A program made the translations under genes and the position numbers. From a virus (taxonomy: Duplodnaviria > Heunggongvirae > Uroviricota > Caudoviricetes), in IMG/VR virus record IMGVR_UViG_3300041407_000207, positions 52,090 to 116,089 of that record: 64,000 nt of DNA; one strand, given 5' to 3'. Positions 7,902 through 63,236 of the stretch are shown piece after piece. Every line of letters starts with the position of its first letter. Within the stretch, counting starts at the first letter, position 1. The notes beneath the pieces are model-generated. The model ran no database searches and was not told where the DNA came from. It saw only the letters and a program-made list of their open reading frames with translations.

Positions 7902-7911
7902 CTTTAAACTG
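7902..7911 (+). promoter_or_regulatory. candidate late-promoter / leader element CTTTAAACTG
   Basis: Identical 10-mer at 57431-57440 upstream of phoH. The related TTAAACT occurs at 58272-58278. Confidence 0.35.
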
Positions 7912-15323: not shown

Positions 15324-15326
15324 TAA

Positions 15327-16193: not shown

Positions 16194-16196
16194 TAA

Positions 16197-26564: not shown

Positions 26565-27587
26565 TTGAGTATCTTCGGTCAAAACCCGGCAGATATCACT
26601 GGTGCAGTCTTTAAGTCTAAAAACTTTTCAGACATTCCAGATAAAGCTGCTGCACGAAATAACCTAAATGTACCGAGTAAAGACGAAGTTCTTTACAACT
26701 CAGTACCCGTAGGTATGATTCTACCGTACTGGGGTTCTGTAGCTCCTGCAGGGTATCTGCCGTGTTCAGGGCAAACAGTTACTTCCGGAACATTTCCGGA
26801 ACTTGTTGCTTTTTTAGGTGGCGGAGCCTCGCAAGTAATTCCGGATCTTCGAGGAGAGTTTCTTCGAGGTTGGGATAACGGTCGTGGAACAGATTTGGGG
26901 CGAGCCATTAAGACTGCTCAAGATGCCCAGACAGAAGATCACAGCCACGTAACTCCCGTGAATGATACGGCGTCTCTCGTAAATATACAAATTGCTAGAG
27001 GTACTGGCAGTTGGCCGTATGGATCATCTTCAGGAATCCTAGTAGGGACTAATACTATTACTTCCGGTGTTTCCTACATCTCTTCTGGAGAAGACAGTTG
27101 GCTTAATACCGGTCCAAACATTAAATTGACAGCCGGAGAGACTCGTCCTCGCAACGTTTCTGTCCTGTATTGCATCAAAGCGTACAGTTCAGTAGCCAAC
27201 TACACTTCTAGCGTTAATATAGCTGGATTGATAAGTGATTATTCCACTCTGAACTCTGCGGCGGTTAAATACGCTGATTTCTTAGGTAGTAATCAGCAAG
27301 TACTTTCTTCAGGATACCAAAAATTGCCAGGAGGCATAATACTTCAGTGGATTCCAGTAGCTATGCCCACTACTGCTTCTGCCAGTACTGCATTTACCTA
27401 TCCAATTGCATTCCCAACAGCGGTTGCTACACTTGCACTGGCCTCTAACCACACCATGAGTACTGCGGGGATTGTTGGTCTCACTATAAATAACCGGAAT
27501 AACTCCGGAGCTAGTTTGATGTGTACTGGATTTACTGGGACAATAGGTGCAGTAGTAGCTACTACCGTAATTGCCATTGGTTATTAA
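26565..27587 (+). CDS. tail fibre protein paralog 1 with phage tail-collar motif, 340 aa
   Basis: TTG start after GGAGAAAA. N-terminus MSIFGQNP..DIPDKAAARNNL. Collar motif LPDLRGEFLRGWDNGRGTDLGRAIKTAQDA. Confidence 0.7.
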   Translation: MSIFGQNPADITGAVFKSKNFSDIPDKAAARNNLNVPSKDEVLYNSVPVGMILPYWGSVAPAGYLPCSGQTVTSGTFPELVAFLGGGASQVIPDLRGEFLRGWDNGRGTDLGRAIKTAQDAQTEDHSHVTPVNDTASLVNIQIARGTGSWPYGSSSGILVGTNTITSGVSYISSGEDSWLNTGPNIKLTAGETRPRNVSVLYCIKAYSSVANYTSSVNIAGLISDYSTLNSAAVKYADFLGSNQQVLSSGYQKLPGGIILQWIPVAMPTTASASTAFTYPIAFPTAVATLALASNHTMSTAGIVGLTINNRNNSGASLMCTGFTGTIGAVVATTVIAIGY

Positions 27588-28242: not shown

Positions 28243-29202
28243 ATGTCTCAATTCGGTCAACCACCTCTCGCCGCTTTTCTCCCGCTAAGGGCTGGTCAAA
28301 ACCTGTCCGACTTGCCTGATAAACCTGCGGCTCTTGCAAATCTCGGGACGCTGAGTACTTCAGATATCATGATGAACTCCGTCCCAATAGGCACCATCAT
28401 CCCATTCTGGGGTAACACTGCTCCAGTAGGATATTTGCCATGTAACGGACAAACTGTCAACTCTGGTACTTTTCCTGACCTTGTTACTTTTCTAGGTGGT
28501 GGCAGTTCACAGGCGCTTCCGGATCTTCGTGGAGAATTCCTCCGTGGATGGGATAATGGTCGTGGGACGGATTTGGGCAGAGCTATTAAAACTGCTCAAG
28601 CAGATGCCCTTAAAAACCACTTCCACTATTTGCCAACCGAAAGCGGTGCGGGCTCGACTTTTGATCCAGCAGGTATAGTTCCGACTATAGTCCTTAAAGA
28701 TGCCCCCGCAGATTGGGTAACAAGAGTAGCAAGTGACAACAATATTTTCGGAACCCCAGCAGGTACGGTAAGAACGTATAGCCAAAGTGCTGACGTAGAG
28801 ACCCGACCTCGCAACATCTCAGTTCTCTACTGCATGAAAGCCTACGGAGCTTTGGTAAACACCTCTACTGCCAATATAGGCAACGTTCTTACCGAACTCA
28901 GTCAATGTACTAAGTTGACTCAATTTGAAGTTTCTCTTTCAGGAAACGGATACCAAAAATTTCCAAACGGTTTGATTATGCAGTGGGGTACGACTTATAT
29001 AAATGCTACAACTGGCTCCGTAACTTTCCCTATAGTTTTCCCAAGTGCATGTACATCAGTAATGACTAATAAACAAACTACTTCGGATGCCCGTAGAACA
29101 AGTACTAGCGCAGCCACCACTGCCGGATTTTCAATATACGGTTGGTCGGGTGCTTCTGCAGCGAACATAGATACTGCCTACTGGATGGCCATAGGATACT
29201 AA
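28243..29202 (+). CDS. tail fibre protein paralog 2 with tail-collar motif, 319 aa
   Basis: N-terminus MSQFGQPP...DLPDKPAALANLG. LPDLRGEFLRGWDNGRGTDLGRAIKTAQADA identical to paralog 1. Confidence 0.7.
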   Translation: MSQFGQPPLAAFLPLRAGQNLSDLPDKPAALANLGTLSTSDIMMNSVPIGTIIPFWGNTAPVGYLPCNGQTVNSGTFPDLVTFLGGGSSQALPDLRGEFLRGWDNGRGTDLGRAIKTAQADALKNHFHYLPTESGAGSTFDPAGIVPTIVLKDAPADWVTRVASDNNIFGTPAGTVRTYSQSADVETRPRNISVLYCMKAYGALVNTSTANIGNVLTELSQCTKLTQFEVSLSGNGYQKFPNGLIMQWGTTYINATTGSVTFPIVFPSACTSVMTNKQTTSDARRTSTSAATTAGFSIYGWSGASAANIDTAYWMAIGY

Positions 29203-29211: not shown

Positions 29212-30189
29212 ATGTCTGATTACTTCGGCCAGTCTCCGGACGGCTATCAAAAACCACTCTACGCTGCTAGTAATTTCAGTGATGTAGTAGATAAGCCTGC
29301 AGCCCTTGTTAACCTCGGTGCAGCTTCGGCGGACGACGTTCTAAAAGCAGCAAACCCAATCGGCACCATCATTGCCTTCTACGGGAGTGTTGCCCCGTAC
29401 GGCTACCTCCCTTGCTCGGGTCAAACCGTCTCTAGTTCTACTTTCCCAAGCTTAGTTACTTTCTTGGGCGGAACTACTTCGGCAACTCTTCCGGATCTTC
29501 GGGGGGAATTCCTCCGTGGATGGGATAATGGTAGAGGGATCGATACGGGTCGCACAATTCGAAGTAACCAGAAAGGATCTCTCCTCTATGGAAATGACGA
29601 TAACGGAGCAGAGGTACATGGACTAAATAGCATCAGTGCTAATAGGGCTGGACTTGGATGGGACGTACCTACTATAACGGAATATTCTGGGGTAGGAACC
29701 TATACCAATAGCGGAGTAATAGTACCTGGAAGTGTTTTATTTTCGGCTGCACATTACGGTACTTCCCGCCCACGAAACGTTTCGGTCCTCTACTGCATAA
29801 AAGCCTACGATTCTCCAGTTAACGCAGGTATTTTGAACGTTGCTACTCTGGCTAGTGAAATGGCTCTTAAAACTGCTCTTGCGGATTTCACGGGTACTAA
29901 TCAGACAAAAGCCAATATTGGTTACCAAAAACTTCCAGGAGGAATGATTATTCAATGGGGTGAATCCGTTACTACGAGCGGGACTGGAAATTTGGTTTTC
30001 CCAATAGCTTTCCCGACTGCAGCTGCGCAATTTATCGCAACTGCAACGGCATCTTCACCGGCTAACTATATTGTTACCTGCGGTTCACTAAGCCCTTCAA
30101 ATATCTCGGTATTTACCACAGGAGCAGTAGCTGGATCAACCCCAGTAGCTATCGCGATAGGCTATCGTTGGGTAGTTCTAGGCTATTAA
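29212..30189 (+). CDS. tail fibre protein paralog 3 with tail-collar motif, 325 aa
   Basis: N-terminus MSDYFGQSP..VVDKPAALVNLG. LPDLRGEFLRGWDNGRGIDTGRTIRSNQ. Confidence 0.7.
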   Translation: MSDYFGQSPDGYQKPLYAASNFSDVVDKPAALVNLGAASADDVLKAANPIGTIIAFYGSVAPYGYLPCSGQTVSSSTFPSLVTFLGGTTSATLPDLRGEFLRGWDNGRGIDTGRTIRSNQKGSLLYGNDDNGAEVHGLNSISANRAGLGWDVPTITEYSGVGTYTNSGVIVPGSVLFSAAHYGTSRPRNVSVLYCIKAYDSPVNAGILNVATLASEMALKTALADFTGTNQTKANIGYQKLPGGMIIQWGESVTTSGTGNLVFPIAFPTAAAQFIATATASSPANYIVTCGSLSPSNISVFTTGAVAGSTPVAIAIGYRWVVLGY

Positions 30190-30633: not shown

Positions 30634-30885
30634 ATGGATCAAATCGACGTTGTAGCAGTAGGCTTTCTGGTCTCTCTGGCCAAAGCAACTATTTCTGTGC
30701 TCATGTTCTCCACCATCACCTTTCTTCTATTGAGAGTGGCTAACAAGCTTTCCGGAATACGTTTCGAACATGCATACCTGGTTGTCGGGACCGATCCCAA
30801 AGCCCTATCCATGTACCTGAGCGTTCGTTATGCAGTTCTAGGCCTGGGAAACGCGTACATCATTGCTTCAAACTTCCTTTACTGA
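30634..30885 (+). CDS. putative holin, 83 aa, 2-3 transmembrane segments
   Basis: Hydrophobic helices (VVAVGFLVSLAKATISVLMFSTITFLLL; LSVRYAVLGLGNAYIIA). Immediately upstream of the endolysin. Confidence 0.45.
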   Translation: MDQIDVVAVGFLVSLAKATISVLMFSTITFLLLRVANKLSGIRFEHAYLVVGTDPKALSMYLSVRYAVLGLGNAYIIASNFLY

Positions 30886-30895
30886 GGTCGTAGAC

Positions 30896-31489
30896 ATGAA
30901 AGTCTTAGCCGTAATTCTAGCATTCCTTTTTACGGCTACTTCGGTAGAGGCGGCCCCGCCTCCGCTAAAGAGCAAGTACGATGGGTTCTTCATAAAGTAC
31001 ACCCAGATGTACCTACCGGGTGTCGACTACGATTTGATAAAGGCTCAGTGCTGGCAGGAGTCTAGATTCAAAGAGCAGGCGGTTTCCCCGGTAGGGGCCG
31101 CTGGCGTCTGTCAGTTCATGCCCGGTACTTGGAAAGACACTAGAAAAGCACTGAAGATTTCCGAGAGTATCTCGGTGTTCCATCCTGAGTACAACATCCA
31201 AGCTGCGGCCTACTACATGGGTACGCAGTACAAGATGTGGAAGTCTCCTAGACCGATGCAAGACAGACATAACCTTGCTACCGCGAGCTACAACGCGGGG
31301 GCAGGTCATTTGATCACTGCACAAAAACTCTGTGGGGGCCCGGCTCTCTACAAAGAAATTATCCCATGCCTGCCTAGGGTGACAGGTAAGAACAGCAAAG
31401 AAACAATGGATTACGTAGTTCACATCCGTAATTTCTACGCCGATCTAAAAAAAGCCAAGAACGAGGTAGTTCCAAATGACGGTCTCTAA
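30896..31489 (+). CDS. lytic transglycosylase (SLT domain) endolysin with N-terminal signal peptide/SAR
   Basis: CWQESRFKEQAVSPVGAAGVCQFMPGTW (catalytic E-S, GLMQ-like). ASYNAGAG. Likely start MKVLAVILAFLF at 30896 (GAGG ribosome-binding site); the table ORF begins at 30863. Confidence 0.75.
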   Translation: MKVLAVILAFLFTATSVEAAPPPLKSKYDGFFIKYTQMYLPGVDYDLIKAQCWQESRFKEQAVSPVGAAGVCQFMPGTWKDTRKALKISESISVFHPEYNIQAAAYYMGTQYKMWKSPRPMQDRHNLATASYNAGAGHLITAQKLCGGPALYKEIIPCLPRVTGKNSKETMDYVVHIRNFYADLKKAKNEVVPNDGL

Positions 31490-46614: not shown

Positions 46615-47196
46615 CTACTGAACTTTCCAGTTCTTAAGATTTTCGTAACTTAGGGGGTGAAGTTCCGATTTATAAAACTCCGCAAGTTCCTCCAAGTACG
46701 TTGATTTCATTTTTAAATACGATGCCCCGGCCTCGTCCTCATTTACGAAATACTGACAACGCCTCTTACCGTTACCTACTCTAATTTTTGCTATGAACCT
46801 CTTATCCCGGTTACACCAGTGAACCCCAACATATCTGGAATTTTTGCAAACGTCAGGGACTATTATTGAGCTGTTCACTATTGCCGGGACAAGATCGCAG
46901 GTTTCCGGCCCGTAAATTTTATTACCTGGATACTTTAAATCTTTATCAATTTGATATCCCTTTTTCCCATAGTTTTTGTGCTCGGTATACCACTTTGCAA
47001 AAACTTGGAAGTGATGCCAAGGCTCTACGACAGAACACCCAACATAAGTTGGTAGCTCTCGTTGATAGTTTTCGTCATAGCATCTGGATATCATATCAAA
47101 CCAAGTATTGTACTCCTTGGTATGCTTACCGTTTTCACAACTGGCGTAGAGGCCCCTCCCCAGGACCCCCACACCTTTAACAAGTTTTTCTCTCAC
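46615..47196 (-). CDS. HNH/AP2-domain homing-endonuclease-like protein, 193 aa
   Basis: C-terminal AP2-type DNA-binding segment YVGVHWCNRDKRFIAKIRVGNGKRRCQYFVNEDEAGASY. N-terminal NTWFDMISRCYDEN...YVGCSV box typical of HNH-AP2 endonucleases. Confidence 0.4.
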   Translation of the reverse strand: MREKLVKGVGVLGRGLYASCENGKHTKEYNTWFDMISRCYDENYQRELPTYVGCSVVEPWHHFQVFAKWYTEHKNYGKKGYQIDKDLKYPGNKIYGPETCDLVPAIVNSSIIVPDVCKNSRYVGVHWCNRDKRFIAKIRVGNGKRRCQYFVNEDEAGASYLKMKSTYLEELAEFYKSELHPLSYENLKNWKVQ

Positions 47197-48056
47197 TTTT
47201 TACCTACGTCAAGGAATGGTACCGCGCTACTAGGAATCATAGTGGTTGGCAGTACTCCATTCCATTTTTCTACGCGAGTAAGGTCTACCAGATTTTGGTT
47301 TTGAGCCAGAGCTTTGGCCTTGACTTCGATAGCATACGCGTCTGCTTCACCGCGCATGCGAGTAGCCGTAGCCTCCGCAGTTGCTTTTGCCACCGTTGCT
47401 TCCGCTTCCGCAGTAGCCCGGTTTACGTTCTGGAGGTTGGTCTCGCCTTGACGCAAGGTTTCGTTTTTCTGGGTAAGAATCTCGACATTCTTCTCCATCA
47501 TTTTGCGGATGTTGCCTTCATACGAATCATCGAAGTCAATATTCTCAACCTGTACAGAGTCAACGACCAGAGGTCCTACAAGAGACTCCCGAACAGATTT
47601 CTCGATGCTCGCACCGAATGCCACCCGCTTAACTACAGAATCCGCTGCGGTGTATTGACCGAAAACGTTTTCAACTTGGGTAGGAACCTGGCGTTCGATC
47701 AGACGACTTTGCAAGCCTTCCAAAGAAGAAAACTTGGAATAGACGTTGGCCACCTCGGCTTCCGGTACATGATACGAGACCGAGACTCGCAAAGTAGCCG
47801 TTTGCTGGTCTTTGGAATACGCAGTCACGCCCGTGAAAGCAATGCTTTGGTTTTGCGTAGAAATAAAGACTACGCTCTGAACGAAAGGCATCTTCACATG
47901 CAGGCCCGGCTCGGCGATGCCGGTAACTTTGCCGTTGGTAAGAATCACTCCACGCTCACGGTCATTGACCGTGTACATGCCGCTGAACACGGCAGAGGCG
48001 ATGATGACGGCGAGAATCGCCAGGAGAATGTTGCGGGTAGACATATGGTTAATCAC
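47193..48056 (-). CDS. SPFH/band-7 (HflC/HflK/prohibitin-like) membrane protein, 287 aa
   Basis: N-terminal transmembrane segment. RGVILTNGKVTGIAEPGLHVKMPFVQSVVFISTQ matches the band-7 core. C-terminal coiled coil. Confidence 0.65.
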   Translation of the reverse strand: MINHMSTRNILLAILAVIIASAVFSGMYTVNDRERGVILTNGKVTGIAEPGLHVKMPFVQSVVFISTQNQSIAFTGVTAYSKDQQTATLRVSVSYHVPEAEVANVYSKFSSLEGLQSRLIERQVPTQVENVFGQYTAADSVVKRVAFGASIEKSVRESLVGPLVVDSVQVENIDFDDSYEGNIRKMMEKNVEILTQKNETLRQGETNLQNVNRATAEAEATVAKATAEATATRMRGEADAYAIEVKAKALAQNQNLVDLTRVEKWNGVLPTTMIPSSAVPFLDVGKK

Positions 48057-51365: not shown

Positions 51366-51395
51366 ACAATCTAATTAGAATCTTTCTCAATTTAC

Positions 51396-51403
51396 TTATA
51401 CCA
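51396..51403 (-). promoter_or_regulatory. extended -10 box TGGTATAAGTA (divergent from the plus-strand late element at 51410-51421)
   Basis: Motif family. Confidence 0.45.
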
Positions 51404-51409
51404 GGTTGT

Positions 51410-51443: not shown

Positions 51444-53663
51444 ATGAGGAACTTCTGCGTGTCCACACCAATTCTCCAAGACCCTACTTCTGAATTTCAG
51501 CCAGTAGAATTCTACACTGATAAGGACCCCTACTACTATGTCATAGATAACCGTCCGTTACGGAATCTAGACGCGAACATTGCCCAACTGGCAGGTAGTC
51601 TCGATGGCGTTAGTAGATCTGTACTTACAGAAGCAGTCGCAGCCTCGGCAGAAGATGCAGGTCTATACAAAGTAGGGACTAAGACCCTAGGCCTAGAAGC
51701 ATTCCAATACTCAGAAGGGGTGTTCTCCCTAACCCCAGGGGTCCTGTTTCAGTCCGCATCAATAAATTCCGGAGATTCTACCCAAGTACTCAAAAAGGCT
51801 TCGTACCCAGTCTCCACTGCTATCAGTGTCCCAAACACGGTAACTTCCGGGAAAGAACGTAATTACCTCATTCAGGTTCGACTGGTTGACGGTGGTGATG
51901 GTAACCCCTCGTTTTATGACGATGGTACAAATCCTACTACTGCACAAACTTTATTTAATGGCAAATTAGAGGTTGCCGCAGTAGCTGGCTCTGACGCGAA
52001 TATCGGCTCCGCTACCGTACCCGCTGTTACTTCTGGCTGGATTCCGATGTACGTTGTGAAGCGGACTTTCGGCGTAACCGACATGGCCATTTCATCTCAC
52101 GTAAACGCCCCTCCCCGAGCTACTTTGGCTAATGGCACTGCGGTAGAAGGGGTAGTCGTAGAAGCCACTGCCGCAAGGACTATCACGGACGCAGACGCAG
52201 GGTCCTTTATCACAACTACTAGTAGTTCTTCAGTAACTATTACTATCCCTGCTCAGGCCGTAACGCCTTGGGCTGATTCCACTGAAATATTTGTGGAACA
52301 ACTTGGCACCGGTCAAGTTACTTTCGTAGGTGCTAGTGGGGTTACTATCCGGGTTCCAGTAGGATCGGTGGCATCTTCCGCAGGACAATATTCAGTAATG
52401 AGGTTGAAACGTACGGGCCTAAACACTTGGACCGTATTCGGAGATATCGTCCGTGGTGTTCATAACGGTGAAAATTTAGTAACGAACTCCGCGTTCCTAA
52501 CCAGCGGGCTTCTGTACACGTTTTCCAGCGCTAACGGTACTTTGTCGTATGTAGATGCTACTGATGGATCGGTCCCAACTCCTTGCCCCGTAACTAGAGT
52601 TGCAGTTTCTACAAAACTTACCGCTGGAACTTTGGCATTCTCGCAATTTCCTTTGAAAAACGGGAGTACTACTATACGAGTGAGTCCTTCCGAAGTACTA
52701 GATCTTTCTATCTGGGCATGTGTTACTGGCGGAGCTGCTAACTCTGCACGAATGGTAGTGGTGGAGAGTACGCCAGACGGTACTTTTATAGCGAACACCC
52801 GAGTTCTTGCCTACAACAACACCGTTGGGGGCTGGCAGCAACTCTCCGGTTCTATTACTGTTTCCGCTACTACTGGGCTAATTTCTGTTGGTATGTGGAA
52901 CGAGTCTTCGATGCCGGCTGGTGGAGTTATTTATTACGGAGAGCCAGCGATTACCCGTCGAAACTCCTCTATCGCTATTCTTCAAACTACAAAAGCCCCG
53001 GTTGCTAACCCTAGATTTGTAACCGGTTCGGTATCTATCTCCGCCACTGCGGGTCAAGAGCCTCTGCCGGTACTGACTTCTGGGTACACTTCAGGACTTT
53101 CAGGATATAACACGGTAGGTCCTTCCGGCAGCCCGTTGACTCAATTTTGCGCACAAGGATATAGTTTTAGTACCGCAAACTTCGGGCCTGCGTTCATCGG
53201 AGCGAGATCACAAGGGACTTACGGCGCCCACGGGGCAGTCTCTGCAGGTAGATCTTGTTTGACTCTGATGGGGGAAGGTAGTGACGGCACTAACTATCAA
53301 CCAGTAGGTCGTATAGATTTCTATGCAGACGCAACTCCTACTTCGACAAGTTCACCCGGTAGCGTTCAGATTCTTACCACTCCAGTTGGTGCAGTACGAC
53401 CAGCTATTGCGGCCACGTTTGCTAGCAATGGTGCTTTAGCCGTAGTTGCAGGCGCTTCATTCGGTGGTTCGGTAGCTATTACTGGTGGGCTAACAGTAAC
53501 GGCCCCATCCCAACTAGGTCAGTTCACCTTGACCACCCTACCAAGTGCTTCAGCATTCAACGGATACATAATTGATGTGACAAACGCAACTGGCGGGGCT
53601 AAAGTATGTCGCTCTAACGGAACTGTTTGGCAAATCCTTAACACTACTACTACTGTGAGCTAA
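51444..53663 (+). CDS. Ser/Thr/Gly-rich tail fibre or tailspike-like protein, 739 aa
   Basis: Beta-rich low-complexity composition typical of fibres. Conserved-looking N-terminal 150 aa. Confidence 0.5.
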   Translation: MRNFCVSTPILQDPTSEFQPVEFYTDKDPYYYVIDNRPLRNLDANIAQLAGSLDGVSRSVLTEAVAASAEDAGLYKVGTKTLGLEAFQYSEGVFSLTPGVLFQSASINSGDSTQVLKKASYPVSTAISVPNTVTSGKERNYLIQVRLVDGGDGNPSFYDDGTNPTTAQTLFNGKLEVAAVAGSDANIGSATVPAVTSGWIPMYVVKRTFGVTDMAISSHVNAPPRATLANGTAVEGVVVEATAARTITDADAGSFITTTSSSSVTITIPAQAVTPWADSTEIFVEQLGTGQVTFVGASGVTIRVPVGSVASSAGQYSVMRLKRTGLNTWTVFGDIVRGVHNGENLVTNSAFLTSGLLYTFSSANGTLSYVDATDGSVPTPCPVTRVAVSTKLTAGTLAFSQFPLKNGSTTIRVSPSEVLDLSIWACVTGGAANSARMVVVESTPDGTFIANTRVLAYNNTVGGWQQLSGSITVSATTGLISVGMWNESSMPAGGVIYYGEPAITRRNSSIAILQTTKAPVANPRFVTGSVSISATAGQEPLPVLTSGYTSGLSGYNTVGPSGSPLTQFCAQGYSFSTANFGPAFIGARSQGTYGAHGAVSAGRSCLTLMGEGSDGTNYQPVGRIDFYADATPTSTSSPGSVQILTTPVGAVRPAIAATFASNGALAVVAGASFGGSVAITGGLTVTAPSQLGQFTLTTLPSASAFNGYIIDVTNATGGAKVCRSNGTVWQILNTTTTVS

Positions 53664-54070: not shown

Positions 54071-55819
54071 TCACGCCGCCATAGGAAGAGATTCCGTCAG
54101 GTTTGTACGCAGCGATGTCATCGTCGCTTCCGAGAGGACTTGACTGTTACGCAGCACACAGTTCAAATCCCCGTTGTAGCCGACCGGCTTACCTTCGACG
54201 AGTTCATACTCGTTGTCTTGATCGAGTTCAAGAGACAACCAGCCTTTCGCAGACTTTTTGCCAGGGTCGGTCTTCGGCGCTTTGTAGACGTCGATCTTCA
54301 TGTTGCCTACTTCGCCATAGGTGAGCTTCATTGCGAAGCCCAACGAATCTCGAGTCAGGTACTGGAGACTGTAGCTGCCTACGCCTACCACGATGTTTTC
54401 CGCAGAGAAGCCCATTTCCATCAAACGTTGCAGAATTGCTTCGAAACGCTGGATGGTGATGGAGTCGCCGTAGATCATGCGGATGTGTGGGTCCAGGACT
54501 TTGAAACCCTTGGAGTTCACAGTGCCGCCGAATACGTTCCACAGATGTTGGACAGTACCGGTCTCTTCTACCGTGGGAGTGGTAGGTTCGAACTGAGTTA
54601 CTGTTTTGCCGTCCATGTAGTAGAACTGTCTGTCTTTGCGGTTCCATTCGATGGAGACGGTGTAGCGATACACTTGACCTTTCCAACGAGCCAGGCCAGA
54701 AACTTCGCTTTCGCCATGCTGGCCGTGTTCAGTTTCGTCTTGGACTTTTTCAGTAACGTAGTCCAGTACCCAACCGCTAGCGTGTTTCTCAGTCTCGGCT
54801 TCATCTCCGATTTCAAAGATTTCAGCGGTTCCGCAGATCACTTCGATAGGGACGCCAGTATCCGGACGAACTACGAATGGGCCCCCTTCACGAGCCATGA
54901 TCTTGTCTTTGAGACGAGGCAGGGCGTATTCCAGCATGCCGTAATAGTCGTAGCTGTCCATAACGAAGCTGATGGGGCCGACGTTGTCCAGGTAGTCAGA
55001 TAGGAAGGCAATTTCTGCTTCCAGCAGTGAACAGCCACGAACAGCTGCGATCATCTGAATGTTGAGGGTGGTTAGAGAGTGCTCGGTGGCCATGATCGAA
55101 CCGAAGTCCGCCTTGGTTGCACCGTACTCATGCATTGCAGCCAAGCAGCCAGGGATGTTATCCGAACCACTGAACGCAGCCAGGAAAGGAGCACCAGTTT
55201 TGTAGCCAGCAGTCATCCCGGTAAGTCCCCGGAGACTGAAGTCGTGACACTGGTACTTAACGTAGCCATTGTCGTCTGCAGTCAGTGCTGCGTACTTCTC
55301 AGCAACGATGCGGTATTCACGAGCAGCAGTGGCTACGGTACTTGGATACCACAGCTCGTTACTGAAGTGATCCTCCATGTAGCTTGCAAGCCACGCAAAG
55401 TCGTCATGCGTGTTGGTCACCAGCATGATCGGGGTGTTTGCTTTTACTACTCGGCCTTCTTCTACTGCATGGACTTCGATAGGCAAATAGCCAAGAGCGT
55501 GCAGATCCGAAAGACGAGTGAGGTCTGCGTTCGGAATGGTCGCCTCGATCAATGGCCGAATCACTTCTTCAACTTCGTCCCACGAGTCTTCGAAGAACAA
55601 GTTCCAAGCATGGTTGATAGCGCACATCCCCTGGAGAATGCCCGCTGCGACGATCTTACCGTCGTACATCGAGCTGCCTTGGAAGTGCTTGGTATTTCGA
55701 GGAGTAAAGTTACCTTGACCCTTCGTGTAGCCTTTTGGGTACAGACCTGGGTGACAGAACTTGTAAGCGTCACAGAGGATGGCTGCGTACAGTTTTGCTG
55801 GGGGGGTACTCATTCGCAT
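54071..55819 (-). CDS. nicotinamide phosphoribosyltransferase-family enzyme (Nampt/NadV or the NARP1 Namat variant), 582 aa
   Basis: MDSYDYYG and VVRPDTGVP match Nampt VSDSYDIY and IIRPDSGNP. IRMIYGDSITIQRF...VGVGSYSLQYLTRD matches LRVIQGDGVD...FGSGGALLQKLTRD. C-terminal KAPKTDPGKKSAKGWLSL matches KDPVADPNKRSKKGRLSL. Confidence 0.85.
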   Translation of the reverse strand: MRMSTPPAKLYAAILCDAYKFCHPGLYPKGYTKGQGNFTPRNTKHFQGSSMYDGKIVAAGILQGMCAINHAWNLFFEDSWDEVEEVIRPLIEATIPNADLTRLSDLHALGYLPIEVHAVEEGRVVKANTPIMLVTNTHDDFAWLASYMEDHFSNELWYPSTVATAAREYRIVAEKYAALTADDNGYVKYQCHDFSLRGLTGMTAGYKTGAPFLAAFSGSDNIPGCLAAMHEYGATKADFGSIMATEHSLTTLNIQMIAAVRGCSLLEAEIAFLSDYLDNVGPISFVMDSYDYYGMLEYALPRLKDKIMAREGGPFVVRPDTGVPIEVICGTAEIFEIGDEAETEKHASGWVLDYVTEKVQDETEHGQHGESEVSGLARWKGQVYRYTVSIEWNRKDRQFYYMDGKTVTQFEPTTPTVEETGTVQHLWNVFGGTVNSKGFKVLDPHIRMIYGDSITIQRFEAILQRLMEMGFSAENIVVGVGSYSLQYLTRDSLGFAMKLTYGEVGNMKIDVYKAPKTDPGKKSAKGWLSLELDQDNEYELVEGKPVGYNGDLNCVLRNSQVLSEATMTSLRTNLTESLPMAA

Positions 55820-55830: not shown

Positions 55831-56670
55831 TTAGTAGTTTTCACGGGTTACGTTGAGGATACGGAGGTTACCTTCGCCTTGCAGCTCACGATGGTAACTG
55901 TTGGTGGAGATTACTTCGTCGTAGATACCGGTAACGACGGCAGTCCCCTTGGAGAACAGACCGTGGGTCACTGCCAAGCTTACCGAAGCAGCGCCCTGTT
56001 CTTTCAGGGAGTGATACAGCGGCACGAATGTACCGCAGCCATCACCGATATCATCCAGGACCAGCAGAGTACGACCTTCGACAGTATCGTTGACCCGGGT
56101 TCCGGAGATAGAACCAGTTGCGAGGTCACGAACCTTGGTGCAGTGAATTACGCCAGCCGCACCTACTTTTCTGGCGAACGATTCCGCCTTCTTAGCAGCA
56201 CCACCATCTGGAGCTGCGATATAGACTTCACGCCACGAGGTATAGATATCACGGAAGATATCGAACTGGGTCACAACTTCCAGGCGGTTGAACAGAGCCG
56301 ATGTAACCTCGCTGTGAGGGTCCAGGATCTTCACGCTGGCAAAGTTACAGGCGTTGATATGCTTAGCCACCACGGCGATGCTGAGAGGCTCACCTGGGTT
56401 GCAAACACGGTCTTGTCGGGCGTATGGCATGTACGGGATGAAGGCAGAGACGTCTGCACGAGGATAGACTCGACGAACAGCGTCCTCGATAAACAGCAGG
56501 TTCAAGAGATCGCCCTGAGTAGTGAGTCGAGCTACAATTTCGACCGACTCTACTTTCTCTGGATAGAGACCTCCGTCCTGGATTTGAGGAACTACTTCAC
56601 CACCTGGAAAGTGAATGTAGGTGATTTCTTCGGTGCAGTTGCCTTTGCGCAGATAAATAGTGCCTTTCAT
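55831..56670 (-). CDS. ribose-phosphate pyrophosphokinase-family enzyme (Prs, or the ADPR-pyrophosphorylating Adps variant), 279 aa
   Basis: IPYMPYARQDR (Prs IPYFGYARQDR). PRPP-binding loop LVLDDIGDGCGT (Prs LVDDMIDTGGT). Confidence 0.75.
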   Translation of the reverse strand: MKGTIYLRKGNCTEEITYIHFPGGEVVPQIQDGGLYPEKVESVEIVARLTTQGDLLNLLFIEDAVRRVYPRADVSAFIPYMPYARQDRVCNPGEPLSIAVVAKHINACNFASVKILDPHSEVTSALFNRLEVVTQFDIFRDIYTSWREVYIAAPDGGAAKKAESFARKVGAAGVIHCTKVRDLATGSISGTRVNDTVEGRTLLVLDDIGDGCGTFVPLYHSLKEQGAASVSLAVTHGLFSKGTAVVTGIYDEVISTNSYHRELQGEGNLRILNVTRENY

Positions 56671-57383: not shown

Positions 57384-57408
57384 TTTGTTTCCTCCTTTGC
57401 TAAAGTTC

Positions 57409-57416
57409 TTATACCA
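57409..57416 (-). promoter_or_regulatory. extended -10 box TGGTATAAGAAC
   Basis: Motif family. Divergent from the plus-strand element at 57431-57440. Confidence 0.45.
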
Positions 57417-57430
57417 GGTTCCGACCTGCG

Positions 57431-57440
57431 CTTTAAACTG
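57431..57440 (+). promoter_or_regulatory. candidate promoter/leader element CTTTAAACTG
   Basis: Identical to 7902-7911. Confidence 0.35.
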
Positions 57441-57469
57441 TAAATACCAGTATCTTTCCGAGGTGGTCT

Positions 57470-58228
57470 ATGAGCAGATATAAAACGCCAGAAACACGTC
57501 AAGCTAGTCGGAACAAGAAGAACGCAGGGAAATTCCCCGAATTGGTCGCCGGGCAGAGTGAGTTGGATGCTCATCTAGAGCAGCAGATGAACAAAATTCG
57601 GTTTGGACCCCTCCAAGGTCGAAATGCCAAACAGAATTTCATGATTCAGACGATAAAGGATAAGAGAATCTCCTTTATCATTGGCCCTGCCGGTACTGGT
57701 AAGACTTTCGTAGCTACTTCCATGGCTTGCGAAATGCTGGAAGCTGACCTTATTGAGAGGATCACCATCGTTCGGCCTATGGTGGGCTGTGAAGAAGAGA
57801 TGGGTTTCGTGCCTGGGACGGAATATGAGAAATACGCTCAATGGCTAGGCCCTTTTCTCGATGTACTAGAAGGTAAGTTAGGAAAAACCAAGGTTGCTTC
57901 CTATCTCAAGTATGGAAAGATCGTAGCCAGCCCCCTAATGACCATGCGTGGATCTACTTTCCGTAACGCAATGGTTATCCTGGACGAAGCTCAGAACACT
58001 ACTCCGGGCCAAATGAAGATGTTCCTGACCCGTTTGGGCGAAGGTTCTCGGGTAGTGGTAGACGGAGACCTTGAACAGTCAGATTTGCCGTACGGAAAAG
58101 ACAACGGTCTGGCCGATGCTCTTCAGAAAATGGAAAACTCTAACTCTGCAGGATTCGTAGAGTTCACTGAGGATGAGATCACGAGAGATCCACTAGTACG
58201 AGAAATCGTAATGGCATACCGCAAGTAA
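57470..58228 (+). CDS. phoH: PhoH-family ATPase, 252 aa
   Basis: Walker A GPAGTGKT. ILDEAQN. Confidence 0.75.
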   Translation: MSRYKTPETRQASRNKKNAGKFPELVAGQSELDAHLEQQMNKIRFGPLQGRNAKQNFMIQTIKDKRISFIIGPAGTGKTFVATSMACEMLEADLIERITIVRPMVGCEEEMGFVPGTEYEKYAQWLGPFLDVLEGKLGKTKVASYLKYGKIVASPLMTMRGSTFRNAMVILDEAQNTTPGQMKMFLTRLGEGSRVVVDGDLEQSDLPYGKDNGLADALQKMENSNSAGFVEFTEDEITRDPLVREIVMAYRK

Positions 58229-58231
58229 ATT

Positions 58232-58255
58232 AGGGGAGGCGAAAGCCTCCCTTTC
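58232..58255 (+). terminator. hairpin terminator
   Basis: GGGAGGC-gaaa-GCCTCCC-tttctct. Confidence 0.5.
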
Positions 58256-58271
58256 TCTATTCCGAATCCTA

Positions 58272-58278
58272 TTAAACT
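58272..58278 (+). promoter_or_regulatory. candidate promoter element TTAAACT
   Basis: 32 nt upstream of the TTG start of the helicase gene. Confidence 0.3.
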
Positions 58279-58309
58279 CTCTTTACTAAACCCATTCGGA
58301 ATAACTGCA

Positions 58310-59782
58310 TTGAACCAGTACCTAACCAAGATCGCCAAACAGTCTGAAAAGAAGAACAAGGACTCAAGCCGTCATCACGACAAAGTCTTGGAGATGCTGG
58401 ATAAAGGAAATGGCGCAGTTGCTCAACATTCCATGGGCTCGGGTAAAACCCTGCTGGCTTTGAAAGCGGCTGCCCGTGCTCAAAAACGCAATCCGCACAA
58501 AGATGTGATTATCTCGGCCCCGGCTTCTGTGATTAAACAGTTCCCGGAAGAAGCTAAGAAATTCGGTATCAAGCTAAATGATAAACATACCAAGTACTTC
58601 TCTCACGAAGAGCTGGTGAACAAAGCCGAGTCTCTGGCTAAGAATAAAAACTCTCTCCTCATCATTGATGAAGGCCATCGTCTTCGCAACAAAGATACCG
58701 CTAAGAATCGTGCCCACGCCTTAGTCCGTGGTTCCTCTGACAAAGCACTGATCCTCAGCGGGACCAGCATGTACAATAAACCACACGACATCGCTGCTTT
58801 AGTGAACCTAGCAACTGGCAAGGAAACTCTTCCAGATTCAGAAGCCAAGTTCAGAGAGAAGTTCATAGCTACTGAAAAAGTAAGTCCAGGCTTTATGAGG
58901 ACTCTGTTCGGAGCCAAACCTGGTGAGAAGGAACGTCTTCGTAACGGCAATGAGCTGAAGAAACTCCTTAAGGGCACAGTTCATAACTATGATGCCCAGA
59001 CTGATATGCCTGAAGAGTTTGCAACTACCACGGAAACTATTCACAAGACCCCTATGTCTAAGGAGCAGGATAGGTACTACCGTTTTGCAGAGAATAATAT
59101 CCCTTGGCCTATCCGGGCAAAGATACGTGCAGGCCTACCACTATCTAAAAAAGAGAATGCTTCCCTGAATGCGTTCTCCTCAGGTGTCCGCCAAATTTCC
59201 AACAGCTATGCTTCTTATACTATGGACCCCTCGAAAGTAGAGGCATCTCCTAAGTTCCAAGAGATGATCAATCACTCAGACGAACTTCGTAAGAAGCAGA
59301 AGAAAGGATACAGGAACGTAGTCTACTCTAACTACCTCGGCAGTGGTCTGGCCCACTACAGTAAACAGTTGAAAGACAAAGGCATTTCTCACGGAGTCTA
59401 CACCGGTGAGCTGAGCAAGACCGAGAAGAAAAAGATGGTTGACGAGTACAACGATGGGGAATTCGACACTCTGCTCCTATCCAGCTCTGGGGCAGAAGGT
59501 TTGAATTTGAAAGGCGTTACTCACATGCAAGTCATGGAGCCGCACTGGAATGACTCAAAGATTCGTCAAGTAATCGCCCGTGCGGTTCGTAGAGGAAGCC
59601 ATGCTCACCTAGAAAAAGCAGATCGTCATGTACAGGTAGACCACTACCACTCCGAGCTTCCAAAAGGATTTTTGGGCAAGGCCAAAGGTAAGTCCATCGA
59701 CGAATACCTCTACTCTATGAGCCAGGATAAAGAAGTTCTGAAGAAAGATATAAACAAACTGATTGACGCAAACTCTAAATAA
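58310..59782 (+). CDS. SF2 (SNF2/DEAD-like) helicase, 490 aa
   Basis: TTG start. Motif I MGSGKT. Motif II IIDEGHRL. Motif III LSGT. C-terminal SSSGAEGLNL and QVIARAVRRGS. Confidence 0.6.
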   Translation: MNQYLTKIAKQSEKKNKDSSRHHDKVLEMLDKGNGAVAQHSMGSGKTLLALKAAARAQKRNPHKDVIISAPASVIKQFPEEAKKFGIKLNDKHTKYFSHEELVNKAESLAKNKNSLLIIDEGHRLRNKDTAKNRAHALVRGSSDKALILSGTSMYNKPHDIAALVNLATGKETLPDSEAKFREKFIATEKVSPGFMRTLFGAKPGEKERLRNGNELKKLLKGTVHNYDAQTDMPEEFATTTETIHKTPMSKEQDRYYRFAENNIPWPIRAKIRAGLPLSKKENASLNAFSSGVRQISNSYASYTMDPSKVEASPKFQEMINHSDELRKKQKKGYRNVVYSNYLGSGLAHYSKQLKDKGISHGVYTGELSKTEKKKMVDEYNDGEFDTLLLSSSGAEGLNLKGVTHMQVMEPHWNDSKIRQVIARAVRRGSHAHLEKADRHVQVDHYHSELPKGFLGKAKGKSIDEYLYSMSQDKEVLKKDINKLIDANSK

Positions 59783-59794
59783 CAGGACTTAAAT

Positions 59795-60418
59795 ATGTTT
59801 TACTTCGGAAATATCACTGCTCACGGTACTACCTATCGGTACCCCGAAAAACCTCCTCAAAATCTAATGTGGGTCGATCCAAAAGGTCATACCAACTTCT
59901 GGTGCTCCGTTCTCGGTGATTTGTCAGGATCAAGTTCTAGCCCTAGAACTGAGACTCGGGAAACACTACCATGCTCTGGAGACCCCTACAACTGGCGGGC
60001 AGGTGACGCCGTACACACTATGACCGGTAAGGTTCGTCTGGAGCTCATTCCGAGTTCTGGAAAAGTAATCATAGGTCAGATCCATGCTCACAAGGCTCCG
60101 AATCCATTCTTGATGGTTACTTGGTGGAACGGGGTTGCCCGGTTCGATTTTAGAGAAATTCCATCAGGCCTCTCCACTAAAGTTCTTTCCGTGCCATGTC
60201 CTCTAGGGGAATCGTTCGAGTACACGGTGAAAATAGATAAGTCTGGCCTGCTTACCGGTACTATCAACGGTCTCGGTTTCCAAACTCAAGTAAACCCCCT
60301 GTGGACTGCGTATCCGTTCTACTTTAAAGCAGGTGCGTACGTAATAGACAACTCTGGTCCTGCAACTGAAGGTGGCTGGGTAGTCTATGAGAACTTCGAA
60401 GTTTCTCACGTAATCTAA
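59795..60418 (+). CDS. polysaccharide lyase family 7 (alginate lyase-like) protein, 207 aa
   Basis: PL7 triad of blocks: RLEL (R-x-E-L); QIHAH (QIH); YFKAGAYVID (YFKAG-x-Y). Confidence 0.6.
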   Translation: MFYFGNITAHGTTYRYPEKPPQNLMWVDPKGHTNFWCSVLGDLSGSSSSPRTETRETLPCSGDPYNWRAGDAVHTMTGKVRLELIPSSGKVIIGQIHAHKAPNPFLMVTWWNGVARFDFREIPSGLSTKVLSVPCPLGESFEYTVKIDKSGLLTGTINGLGFQTQVNPLWTAYPFYFKAGAYVIDNSGPATEGGWVVYENFEVSHVI

Positions 60419-60420
60419 AA

Positions 60421-60444
60421 AAGGGCCGAAAGGCCCTTATCGTT
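60421..60444. terminator. hairpin terminator
   Basis: aaaaGGGCC-gaaa-GGCCCtt. Confidence 0.5.
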
Positions 60445-60748
60445 CTGCATCAAATGCTTGAAGTACTAAGGTCATGCTGACGAGTGATTTTTTACGGCTC
60501 AAGTCAGTTATCTCAACCCGCCTCAAGAAATCACTCTCTACCTTCCTGTTCCAGTAGTATTGCATGAGGTCGCTCTCGCCGCTCGGCCTGACTCTTGCAA
60601 ACTTGATTACGTTGTCTCTTAGAGATAGTTTTTTAAAGATAAGAATATAGTTTCTATCGGTTTCATGTCTTTGAGAAACTGCGATCTCTATATTTTGCGC
60701 AGAACCCCTCTCAGTGAAAAGTTCATTCAAAAATCTGAAAAGTTTCAA
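60437..60748 (-). CDS. hypothetical small protein, 103 aa
   Basis: ORF. N-terminal FRFLNELF. Confidence 0.35.
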   Translation of the reverse strand: MKLFRFLNELFTERGSAQNIEIAVSQRHETDRNYILIFKKLSLRDNVIKFARVRPSGESDLMQYYWNRKVESDFLRRVEITDLSRKKSLVSMTLVLQAFDAER

Positions 60749-61071
60749 TCGCTACTCTCCCGTGTATTTACCAGGGTCACAATTATCTTATTATTACTCC
60801 CTATCCTGCCAATTTTCGAAGCCTCTCTGCCAATAGCTTTTACGCAATAAGAACCATAAACACCTTGGCGAGTCTTACTATCGAACCAATGAAATGAAGC
60901 ATTCTCCCGTTTACCACTGGAACTTATCCGGGTACATTCCAAGTGGTATCTGCCGAGATGTCGTATTTCGTATTTATTTGCAAGAGAAGAACTTACGAAA
61001 GTTATCTTGGAGATATCCCCACCAAGGTCTATAAACTTACTGAGAAAATCTCGGAAGTAAAGTTGGTTCAT
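60745..61071 (-). CDS. hypothetical small protein, 108 aa
   Basis: ORF. Shares the ASFHWFDSK / ARFDWAKY block with the next gene. Confidence 0.35.
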   Translation of the reverse strand: MNQLYFRDFLSKFIDLGGDISKITFVSSSLANKYEIRHLGRYHLECTRISSSGKRENASFHWFDSKTRQGVYGSYCVKAIGREASKIGRIGSNNKIIVTLVNTRESSD

Positions 61072-61096
61072 CGTTGATTCCTCGGTATCTTATGGG

Positions 61097-61402
61097 CTAA
61101 CGGTGTTTATGTCCATGTAGGACTACTCGTACTTTGCTACCACTCCGAGAAATCAACTCCCCAACCCCGCGTGCCACCGTCACTTCACCTACCGTATGAC
61201 TTTTTATATTTGAATATTTCGCCCAATCGAATCTTGCAGTGTCTTTTCGAGTTGGACTCGTGCAGTCCAATCTCATACCCGCGCCGGATCCAGAAATACC
61301 ATGAGGGATATACCAATTCTCCATCCACGTCGCTTTGAATATAATGGAATTCAGAGGGATACCCTCTGCCGTCAATAGGTTGATCAACTGGTCAAAGTTC
61401 AT
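61097..61402 (-). CDS. hypothetical small protein, 101 aa
   Basis: ORF. Confidence 0.35.
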   Translation of the reverse strand: MNFDQLINLLTAEGIPLNSIIFKATWMENWYIPHGISGSGAGMRLDCTSPTRKDTARFDWAKYSNIKSHTVGEVTVARGVGELISRSGSKVRVVLHGHKHR

Positions 61403-62095: not shown

Positions 62096-62172
62096 TGGTA
62101 ACCGGTAAGGGATTCGAACCCATAACCTACGAGGTAGAAGCTCGTAGCTCTATCCAGTTGAGCTAACCGGTT
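62096..62172 (-). tRNA. tRNA-Arg(UCU)
   Basis: Acceptor AACCGGT/ACCGGTT. D-arm GCTC-AACTGGAT-AGAGC. Anticodon stem ACGAG/CTCGT with loop CTTCTAC. T-arm ATGGG-TTCGAAT-CCCTT (one mismatch). Encoded CCA. Confidence 0.7.
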
Positions 62173-62177: not shown

Positions 62178-62573
62178 TTACTTTACAAGCCTCAGGAACG
62201 AAGGCTTTGGTACCGTGGCCGCTTCTTCCGTTGGAGCAAAGACCGGTTCTTCACTATCAGGCTCGAGCTCATCAAATATCATGCCCTGACCAGTTTCTCT
62301 AGAGTAAACGGCCCGCACTGCTTGAATAGGGATTACAAGGGTATGTTTAACGCCCTTGAACCCCCCTATGAAAGAAACTATCTCATTGCCCATGTGGAGA
62401 TTACTAACTGCTCCAGGAGAGAGGTTCAGGACAATCTCACCGTCGTTATCAAATCCACTTGGAACTTCTACTCCTTTCATTTCAGTGTTGACCAGAATGT
62501 GTGGAGTTTCGTTGTTATCGTTGATCCACTCATATAGAGCTCGGATCAGATACGGGCGACTAGATGTCATGGT
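62178..62573 (-). CDS. sspB: SspB-like ClpXP specificity-enhancing adaptor, about 131 aa
   Basis: RPYLIRALYEWINDNNETPHILVN...DGEIVLNLSPGAVSNL...IPIQAVRAVYSRETGQGMIF is collinear with E. coli SspB (RPYLLRAFYEWLLDNQLTPHLVVD...DGQIVLNIAPRAVGNL...VPLAAVLAIYARENGAGTMF). C-terminal KPSFLRLVK resembles the ClpX-binding tail RPALRVVK. Start placed at the internal Met (62573) to avoid overlap with tRNA-Ser. Confidence 0.75.
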   Translation of the reverse strand, partial: TMTSSRPYLIRALYEWINDNNETPHILVNTEMKGVEVPSGFDNDGEIVLNLSPGAVSNLHMGNEIVSFIGGFKGVKHTLVIPIQAVRAVYSRETGQGMIFDELEPDSEEPVFAPTEEAATVPKPSFLRLVK

Positions 62574-62592
62574 AGATACTCTTGTGTAAAGG

Positions 62593-62682
62593 TGGAGGAA
62601 CAATCCAGATTCGAACTGGAGGAGCTATTTCTAACCCGACGATTTAGCAAACCGTTACCTTAAGCCACTCGGTCATTGTTCC
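62593..62682 (-). tRNA. tRNA-Ser(GCU), type II
   Basis: Acceptor GGAACAA/TTGTTCC. Anticodon stem ACGGT/ATCGT with loop TTGCTAA. Long variable arm. T-arm CCAG-TTCGAAT-CTGG. Discriminator U. Encoded CCA. Confidence 0.65.
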
Positions 62683-62687
62683 AAATA

Positions 62688-62775
62688 TGGAGGCGGGTTA
62701 GGGATTCGAACCCTAGGAGCCTTTCGACCCGACTGATTTCAAGTCAGTTACCATAGACCACTCGGTCAACCCGCC
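62688..62775 (-). tRNA. tRNA-Ser(UGA), type II
   Basis: Acceptor GGCGGGT/ACCCGCC. Anticodon stem ACTGA/TCAGT with loop CTTGAAA. Long variable arm. T-arm TAGGG-TTCGAAT-CCCTA. Encoded CCA. Confidence 0.7.
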
Positions 62776-63159: not shown

Positions 63160-63236
63160 TGGTGGGCCCTGAGTGACTTGAACACTCGACCAAGCGATTA
63201 TGAGTCGCCTGCTCTGACCAACTGAGCTAAGGGCCC
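63160..63236 (-). tRNA. tRNA-Met(CAU) (elongator/initiator/Ile2 not distinguishable by eye)
   Basis: Acceptor GGGCCCT/AGGGCCC. D-arm GCTC-AGTTGGTC-AGAGC. Anticodon stem GGCGA/TCGCT with loop CTCATAA. T-arm GAGTG-TTCAAGT-CACTC. Encoded CCA. Confidence 0.7.

Follow-up and report, generated by a model that had tools for sequence, protein, structure and literature searches.

A free-standing PL7 lyase gene outside the tail module of a tailed phage, encoding a candidate soluble alginate depolymerase

A 64,000-nucleotide stretch of a tailed phage genome (Caudoviricetes; positions 52,090 to 116,089 of IMG/VR virus record IMGVR_UViG_3300041407_000207, hereafter the window) carries at 59795–60418 an open reading frame (ORF) whose sequence marks it clearly, and far beyond chance, as a genuine and intact member of polysaccharide lyase family 7 (PL7). 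The encoded protein is predicted to be a single β-jelly-roll domain with a complete active site, and it has neither an export signal nor a domain for attachment to the virion. We propose, with a probability of roughly 60%, that it is an endolytic alginate lyase that lacks a leader, is made during infection and is released at lysis as a soluble depolymerase. In this proposal we infer the enzymatic activity, alginate as the substrate, the timing of synthesis, the route of release, the benefit to the phage and the Pseudomonas host.

Results

Family assignment and active site

The 207-residue ORF that an initial annotation of this DNA had described on the + strand is present with an ATG start, and it contains the three sequence blocks of the family:

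59784–59787, + strand: Shine-Dalgarno-like AGGA, 7 nucleotides (nt) before the PL7 ATG, with the same layout in L003, a related contig with an 87% identical PL7 protein
59795–60418, + strand: putative PL7 polysaccharide (alginate) lyase gene, ATG start, 207 amino acids (aa), 22.9 kDa, pI 6.6
59945–59962, + strand: block 1, R51-T-E53-T-R55-E56, which aligns with RSELRE of the alginate lyases PA1167 and A1-II′
60077–60085, + strand: block 2, Q95-I-H97, the His being the predicted catalytic base or acid partner
60320–60340, + strand: block 3, Y176-F-K178-A-G-A-Y182, Y182 being the predicted catalytic Tyr

The translated ORF matches Pfam PF08787 (Alginate_lyase2) with 109.4 bits (E 3e-31; curated threshold 29.7 bits) over profile positions 38–225 of 225. 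Its top sequence match in the PDB is the Pseudomonas aeruginosa alginate lyase PA1167 (1vav, E 1.1e-30), followed by A1-II′ of Sphingomonas (E about 4e-14) and then by further PL7 alginate lyases; the glucuronan lyase 7nde is also among the matches (E 2.6e-4). The match in PHROGs is weak and is to an unannotated family (phrog_31475, E 1.7e-5). The Pfam and PA1167 scores, together with the fold and the conserved catalytic residues described below, bear out the PL7 identity that had been proposed.

The canonical PL7 blocks are R-(S/V/A)-ELRE, QIH and YFKAG-x-Y-x-Q (PMC7287115; PMC9345997), and the conserved catalytic pair of the family consists of a His and a Tyr (PMC9345997). The initial annotation had read R-x-E-L, QIH and YFKAG-x-Y as three blocks in the right order and spacing. 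The second (aa 95–97) and the third (YFKAGAY, aa 176–182) were correctly placed, but the first was not. The only instance of R-x-E-L in the protein is RLEL at aa 81–84, which precedes QIH by 14 residues and is not aligned with the family block, whereas the true block 1 is RTETRE at aa 51–56, 44 residues before QIH.

Residue conservation was assessed in an alignment of the PL7 protein with 65 full-length relatives (40–87% identity, 66 sequences). R51, R55, Q95, K178, G180 and Y182 are present in 66/66 sequences and E53 and H97 in 65/66, with Gln replacing the catalytic His in a single relative (P0072), while Y176 is kept in 63/66 and is Phe in the other three. Y182 is taken by us to be equivalent to Tyr284 of A1-II′, a numbering that fits the titles of PDB entries such as 'A1-II′ Y284F'. 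The clade has its own form of two of the blocks. Block 1 retains both Arg and both Glu of the canonical motif and has Thr at its second position. Position 54, which is Leu in the canonical block 1, is Thr in the window and is free in the clade (S, G, T, Y or L). The core of block 3 is intact but the tail of the motif (x-Q) is not matched; V-I follows Y182 here, and I184-D185 is invariant in the clade at the place of the trailing x-Q.

Judged by this intact active site, the protein should be catalytically competent. The two lid loops, LIPSSGKV and FREIPSGLSTK, are equal in length to the loops of the endolytic enzymes PA1167 and A1-II′, so that endolytic cleavage of alginate is predicted, and the protein is without the extra loops or domains of PL7 enzymes that are exolytic or bear a carbohydrate-binding module. 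Compared with an 87% identical relative, the ratio of non-synonymous to synonymous substitution rates (dN/dS) of the gene is 0.07 with dS close to 1, and the gene is under strong purifying selection. That the protein is a remnant lyase, inactive or able only to bind carbohydrate, is very improbable. Such a remnant could be argued from the His to Gln exchange in P0072 and from Tyr176 to Phe in three relatives, but the residues for catalysis and carboxylate binding are all present, both here and in 65–66 of the 66 sequences, purifying selection is strong, and the structural model is confident and complete. A degenerate lyase was rejected on the residue conservation and the dN/dS value.

Fold, domain architecture and absence of a leader

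An AlphaFold2 model built on the 66-sequence alignment is all-β with 15 strands and has a mean predicted local distance difference test score (pLDDT) of 95.8 and a predicted template modelling score (pTM) of 0.91. When the model was compared with the PDB using Foldseek, PA1167 (1vav) ranked first with a template modelling (TM) score of 0.87 over a whole-length alignment, and A1-II′ (2cws) was next (TM 0.82), followed by about 40 further PL7 lyases. Among the predicted viral structures of BFVD, the only close folds were giant-virus PL7 proteins. The initial annotation had offered the jelly-roll prediction as a test of its proposal, and the modelled protein is indeed a single β-jelly-roll domain. 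It aligns end to end with PA1167 and nothing is left over at either end; as had been stated from the sequence, it is not fused to a fibre or spike, and neither an adaptor nor a trimerisation module is attached to it.

The initial annotation had suggested looking for a signal peptide, and none was found in the PL7 protein or in the 65 relatives by Kyte–Doolittle hydropathy of the first 40 residues. The maximum 10-residue mean within that region is 0.47 here and stays under 1.5 in every relative. The N-terminus, MFYFGNITAHGTTYRYPEKPP, has no basic n-region, and the pattern MxxFGNITAHG, which is kept in the clade, is modelled as strands of the fold.

PA1167 is the known enzyme most like the PL7 protein in both sequence and structure. 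The two proteins are similar in size (222 and 207 aa, respectively), each is a single jelly roll with no signal peptide, and they have in common the three blocks, the catalytic residues and the lengths of the lid loops. However, they are only ∼31–35% identical, block 1 is RSELRE in PA1167 and RTETRE in the PL7 protein, block 3 ends in LQ rather than VI, and PA1167 is chromosomal in its host and not phage-borne. The phage proteins form a group apart from PA1167 that is distinguished by the conserved N-terminus. A1-II′ of Sphingomonas sp. A1 (PDB 2cws/2zaa) is a cytoplasmic PL7 alginate lyase of broad specificity and has the Arg/Gln/His/Tyr catalytic set in common with the PL7 protein; in this comparison the segment IPSSGKVIIGQIH is nearly identical to LPSSGKIIVAQIH. 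Unlike the PL7 protein, A1-II′, which is ∼25% identical to it, belongs to a bacterial alginate-assimilation pathway and not to a phage.

The PhoH-helicase-PL7 unit

The genes for PhoH, the helicase and PL7 form a short island on the + strand between divergent and convergent genes on the − strand:

57408–57447, + strand: CTTATACCAGGTT-N12-TTAAACT-N2-AAATAC, a conserved promoter-like element that heads the PhoH unit
57470–58228, + strand: PhoH-like ATPase gene, first of the + strand unit (Pfam PF02562, 228 bits)
58232–58253, + strand: terminator-like hairpin separating PhoH from helicase, after which a second TTAAACT comes at 58272
58310–59782, + strand: SNF2/DEAD-type helicase gene (Pfam SNF2-rel_dom and Helicase_C), its TTG start being uncertain
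60421–60438: GC-rich hairpin AAGGGCC-GAAA-GGCCCTT, 3 nt past the PL7 stop codon and between convergent genes, with a T-run on the − strand

The PL7 gene starts 13 nt after the helicase stop codon (59780–59782). Neither a promoter-like site nor a gap was found between these two genes, so co-transcription is the simplest reading and the PL7 gene is probably transcribed together with the helicase gene. Its linkage to PhoH is less sure because of the hairpin at 58232–58253 and because relatives have a DUF7338 gene inserted at this place. Of the statement in the initial annotation that the lyase is expressed with PhoH and the helicase, the neighbours and the position at the end of a + strand unit therefore stand, and co-transcription with PhoH is left uncertain by the hairpin. 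The hairpin at 60421–60438 is the predicted end of the unit, and L003 has at the same place a hairpin with its T-run on the + strand.

The 13-mer CTTATACCAGGTT occurs exactly at 57408–57420 and again at 51395–51407, with TTAAACT or TAAACT 7–12 nt downstream of each copy, and the second copy is upstream of a 739-aa fibre-like ORF that starts at 51444. A compressed form, ACCAGG-N-TTAAACT (7895–7910; 0.03 expected by chance), precedes the gene for the large terminase. In an 87% relative, TTATACCAGG...TTAAAAT is kept upstream of PhoH, and the rest of that intergenic region has diverged. The element before PhoH is a genuine conserved non-coding element whose timing class is not readable from sequence, and CTTATACCAGGTT is likely to mark a phage-specific promoter. 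The exact 10-mer CTGTAAATAC is found only at 57438, upstream of PhoH; with one mismatch there are 7 sites, which is not clearly above chance. A sigma-70 scan of 56.5–61.5 kb gave no + strand site upstream of PhoH, the helicase or PL7, and its totals were at background.

The initial annotation had derived expression of the lyase from a 'late-type element', by which the CTTATACCAGGTT element upstream of PhoH was probably meant. The conserved element exists but the late label was not upheld, since the T4-type TATAAATA, with 5 copies in the window, is not found near the PhoH unit, and the neighbouring genes look early or middle. These neighbours are genes of replication and nucleotide metabolism, and in most of the other phages the PL7 gene is likewise in a replication module, which suggests early or middle expression, if anything.

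Two relatives with 87% identical PL7 proteins (L003 and L004) have the extra DUF7338 gene between PhoH and helicase, and they also have a Tad3-family gene (PF25185, the name of an anti-defence family) that the matching part of the window lacks. The coordinates of these extra genes are 5873–6505 and 12882–13445.

Relatives and gene contexts

The phage is without a close cultured relative. A megablast search with 57400–61400 against 50,697 phage records gave no match. For the large terminase, identity is 52% to the protein of Salmonella phage Arash (181 kb) and 43% to the proteins of three Vibrio phages, and the helicase is 38% identical to the Arash DNA helicase. Arash has no PL7 gene, and its helicase gene adjoins an RNA polymerase β-like gene and structural genes, which argues that the PhoH-helicase-PL7 cassette is not ancestral at that distance. 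The same cassette with a 99% identical PL7 protein is present on a 70-kb food-metagenome contig (PRJNA327808), and 87% identical copies of PL7 are on contigs of 68–165 kb.

PL7 homologues of ∼205–210 aa were found in 3 cultured Pseudomonas phages, in 30 IMG/VR viral contigs and in Pseudomonas chromosomes. The cultured carriers, which infect P. syringae or Pseudomonas sp., are phiK7A1 (68% identical over the full length), Arace01 (56%) and Ep020 (52%). The P. syringae phage phiK7A1 protein (phiK7A1_116, QNR53904.1) is annotated as 'polysaccharide lyase family 7 protein', whereas the other two are unannotated in the phage records, although UniRef names already mark the Arace01 homologue as PL7. 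All three belong to the same clade, are of the same length, are free-standing, and are encoded among replication or early genes and not in the tail module. The genomes themselves (98 kb and 77 kb) are unrelated to the window, with no DNA similarity and no large-terminase match, and the neighbours of the lyase gene in those phages are DNA polymerase and primase rather than PhoH and an SNF2 helicase. When grouped by common neighbours, the loci fall into the following contexts:

phiK7A1-like context, after DNA polymerase/primase and before exonuclease: 11 loci
contigs of ∼104 kb, between DNA ligase/cpYpsA and metallophosphoesterase: 6 loci
the window's own group, PhoH-helicase-PL7: 5 loci
prophages, beside integrase: 5 loci
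second prophage group: 4 loci
group with unannotated neighbours: 4 loci
jumbo lineage of ∼207 kb, after three tail-type genes: 2 loci
singleton contexts: about a dozen loci

PL7 proteins from unrelated virulent-type contexts are 67–73% identical to each other, while the prophage clade is 55–60% identical to them and the PA1167-type chromosomal genes ∼30–33%. These comparisons point to PL7 as a small accessory gene that has passed repeatedly, by horizontal transfer, among Pseudomonas phages.

The contexts also bear on whether the enzyme could be part of the virion. In the ∼207-kb jumbo lineage, a 70% identical gene comes immediately after three Phage_tail_beta genes of the same strand, the PhoH unit and the 739-aa fibre-like ORF of the window have the exact 13-mer promoter-like element in common, and distant PL7-like ORFs of P. 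putida jumbo phages adjoin a minor tail protein. These observations would be in agreement with an accessory enzyme that binds without a covalent link to a fibre or baseplate protein and acts during adsorption like a tailspike depolymerase in trans. We consider such docking unlikely. Past the jelly roll, the protein has no domain or extension that might act as an adaptor. In at least 4 other lineages, the largest groups among them, PL7 is found among genes for DNA polymerase, primase, ligase, phosphoesterase or helicase, and within the window the gene is ∼30 kb from the tail-fibre genes (20.4–30.2 kb), outside the tail module as had been noted initially.

The prophage loci raise instead a role inside the infected or lysogenic cell, in which the enzyme would trim the cell's own nascent alginate after permeabilisation of the envelope or would act as a prophage conversion gene that alters biofilm or dispersal. 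Most lineages encode it with early- or middle-type genes, and in Pseudomonas chromosomes it is at a prophage end beside the integrase, a position typical of morons. PA1167 is likewise reportedly leaderless, and its physiological role is said not to be established. Alginate is polymerised at the inner membrane (Alg8/Alg44), and the polymer is found only in the periplasm and outside the cell. A leaderless cytoplasmic enzyme would have no access to it before lysis, and with no export signal in any of 66 relatives an intracellular role appears quite improbable.

A distant PL7-like gene is present in Pseudomonas phage vB_PpuM-Lauda (L069 2276–2956) and seven sister jumbo phages. It encodes a 226-aa 'hypothetical protein', unannotated there, whose identity to the PL7 protein is ∼26% over the C-terminal two-thirds of the latter, and it is next to a minor tail protein.

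Host and substrate

All bacterial matches above 50% identity are from Pseudomonas (fluorescens or putida groups) with the exception of one contig. In addition, SspB of the window is nearest, among named cellular proteins, to Pseudomonas SspB (55–69% identity). A Pseudomonas host is what these sequences suggest. Tail fibres were rejected as a clue to the host, the collar-fibre domain being present in 988 records over many genera and the 739-aa ORF matching short C-terminal pieces only.

The exceptional contig is L043 (JAKFDZ010000088.1; 8.6 kb), which is assigned to a 'Flavihumibacter sp.' metagenome-assembled genome (MAG) and encodes a 65% identical PL7 protein and a PhoH-like gene. It groups with the ∼104-kb viral contigs and probably represents phage DNA wrongly binned with a Bacteroidota MAG.

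The substrate might not be alginate but another polysaccharide of uronic acids, for example a glucuronan-type exopolysaccharide (EPS), or a capsule or an O-antigen with uronic acids. PL7 does include β-glucuronan lyases (7nde), the clade deviates at position 4 of block 1 and after YFKAGxY, the host is unproven, and a phage lyase against the Pseudomonas O-antigen is known in the LKA1 tailspike (PMC5701251). Even so, alginate lyases are by far the closest matches (PA1167 and A1-II′ at 1e-30 and 4e-14, as against 2.6e-4 for the glucuronan lyase), QIH is described as typical of enzymes that cleave mannuronate/guluronate (M/G) alginate (PMC7287115), and all hosts of cultured carrier phages and all bacterial carriers are Pseudomonas, whose main uronate polymer is alginate (PMC4571675, PMC7696170). 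A non-alginate substrate is therefore rather unlikely, and we retain alginate.

Other genes in the window

The PL7 gene is flanked by PhoH, the helicase, NAD-salvage genes and small ORFs, and the same region contains the SspB gene and tRNA genes. The principal features elsewhere in the window are:

7917–9614: large terminase
18820–19515: sigma-factor-like gene
20.4–30.2 kb: tail-fibre genes, including three paralogous collar-fibre genes
30863–31489: endolysin-like gene, after the collar-fibre genes

The three tail-collar-fibre paralogues are in a row on the + strand (26565–27587, 28243–29202 and 29212–30189; PHROG 523/327). The 739-aa ORF (51444–53663, + strand) is outside the main tail module, 6 kb upstream of the PL7 gene; its last ∼70 residues are 58% identical to the tail-fibre C-termini of Burkholderia, Erwinia and Acidovorax phages, and it may be an extra fibre or spike. 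Among the virion proteins of the window, a Pfam search for depolymerase domains gave only a sub-threshold endosialidase β-barrel. For the large ORFs at 10541–18623, neither PHROGs nor Pfam gave a match.

Just upstream of the PhoH unit, and divergent from it, an NAPRTase/NAMPT-like gene (54071–55819, − strand) adjoins a phosphoribosyl pyrophosphate (PRPP)-synthetase-like gene (55831–56670, − strand). Phages may use such NAD-salvage pairs against NAD-depleting defences. A homologue of SspB, the ClpXP adaptor (62178–62603, − strand), is inside a tRNA cluster; tRNAs are at 44673–44746, 62096–62172, 62593–62775 and 63160–63236, the cluster comprising Arg, Ser (two) and Met, with Gly elsewhere. A ThiF/E1-like gene (PF00899; 1840–3096, − strand) and a JAB-domain gene (PF14464; 3470–4522, − strand) are adjacent and make up a ubiquitin-like conjugation/deconjugation pair, possibly related to counter-defence. 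Finally, a gene of the SPFH/Band-7 family (47193–48056, − strand; Pfam 106 bits) is annotated as 'lipoprotein' in PHROGs.

Discussion

We propose that the PL7 protein would be synthesised in the infected cell's cytoplasm from the last gene of the helicase (and probably PhoH) unit. Lacking both an export signal and a domain for attachment to the virion, it would accumulate until the cell lyses and would then be set free, the product of the endolysin-like gene at 30863–31489 being a putative lysis enzyme at hand. Once released, the enzyme would spread by diffusion and thin out the alginate matrix or the mucoid coat around Pseudomonas cells nearby, which would expose receptors to progeny phage. 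Cleavage would take place by β-elimination at the 4-O-glycosidic bond of the uronate polymer, with R51, E53, R55, Q95 and K178 holding and neutralising the carboxylate and H97 and Y182 acting as base and acid. The architecture of the protein and the position of its gene fit the soluble depolymerases freed at lysis, which are a recognised category (PMC5380687). Alginate overproduction leads to partial phage resistance in Pseudomonas (PMC4571675), and alginate may mask phage receptors (PMC7696170). The initial annotation had envisaged the depolymerisation of alginate or EPS matrix, and its use in assisting adsorption or spread seems to us the most reasonable interpretation.

Several points weigh against this proposal. 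No enzyme assay for any member of the phage PL7 clade was found in the literature searched. The clade is only ∼31–35% identical to PA1167 and departs from the canonical motifs in having a variable residue, here Thr, for Leu in block 1 and Ile-Asp for the trailing Gln of block 3, so its substrate preference could differ, and PL7 also includes glucuronan lyases such as 7nde. The large terminase has no Pseudomonas phage relatives, and the host is not established. For an enzyme that is needed only once the cell has lysed, the usual place of the gene in replication modules is odd, and its position directly after three tail-fibre-type genes in the jumbo-phage lineage would fit virion association.

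The only phage alginate lyases known biochemically are those of Pseudomonas phage PT-6 (37 kDa) and of an Azotobacter vinelandii phage (30–35 kDa) (PMC5380687). These enzymes are a functional precedent in that they are phage-encoded and act on alginate producers; they are larger than the 23-kDa PL7 protein and are without known sequence ('ND' in PMC5380687), so a common family identity can be neither claimed nor excluded. The depolymerases of tailspikes and fibres, such as the O-antigen lyase LKA1 gp49 and the pectate-lyase-type spikes of phi15 and AF, serve the same purpose of clearing a surface polysaccharide barrier. However, they are large trimeric β-helix proteins that form part of the virion and have their genes in the tail module, whereas the PL7 protein, a jelly roll of 207 aa and of monomer size, has no adaptor and is encoded with replication genes.

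The finding is sound but fairly ordinary, given that annotated copies of this gene already exist for a few Pseudomonas phages (phiK7A1); the family, the fold and the idea of a soluble phage depolymerase are all known. What is modestly new is the breadth of the distribution of PL7 and its habitual non-structural location. A survey count of viral PL7 proteins gave 33 in a soil virus atlas, and no paper characterising a sequenced phage PL7 protein, describing Arace01 or Ep020, or mentioning the food metagenome PRJNA327808 was found in the literature searched. The habitual place among replication genes calls for caution against giving viral PL7 proteins a virion-structural label automatically, as in metagenome surveys.

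PL7 copies that are 67–74% identical in at least 5 unrelated genome contexts suggest a broader idea, to which we give somewhat less than an even chance. The leaderless clade of ∼207 aa may be a mobile, non-structural counter-defence gene against mucoidy, a diffusible 'public good' that unrelated virulent Pseudomonas phages and prophages would each have acquired and inserted into early or replication modules, and that is stockpiled during infection and then freed at the burst. If so, it would remove the alginate coat overproduced by Pseudomonas as partial phage resistance, a strategy separate from that of the tailspike depolymerases. In Pseudomonas, mucoidy is recognised as a way to partial phage resistance (PMC4571675), and it is a main obstacle to phage and antibiotic access in biofilms. 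Because it recurs in many unrelated Pseudomonas phages, the compact, leaderless and confidently modelled 23-kDa PL7 protein is a concrete and easily expressed candidate for a phage alginate lyase activity, and its gene may serve as a marker of phages that are likely to cope with mucoid hosts.

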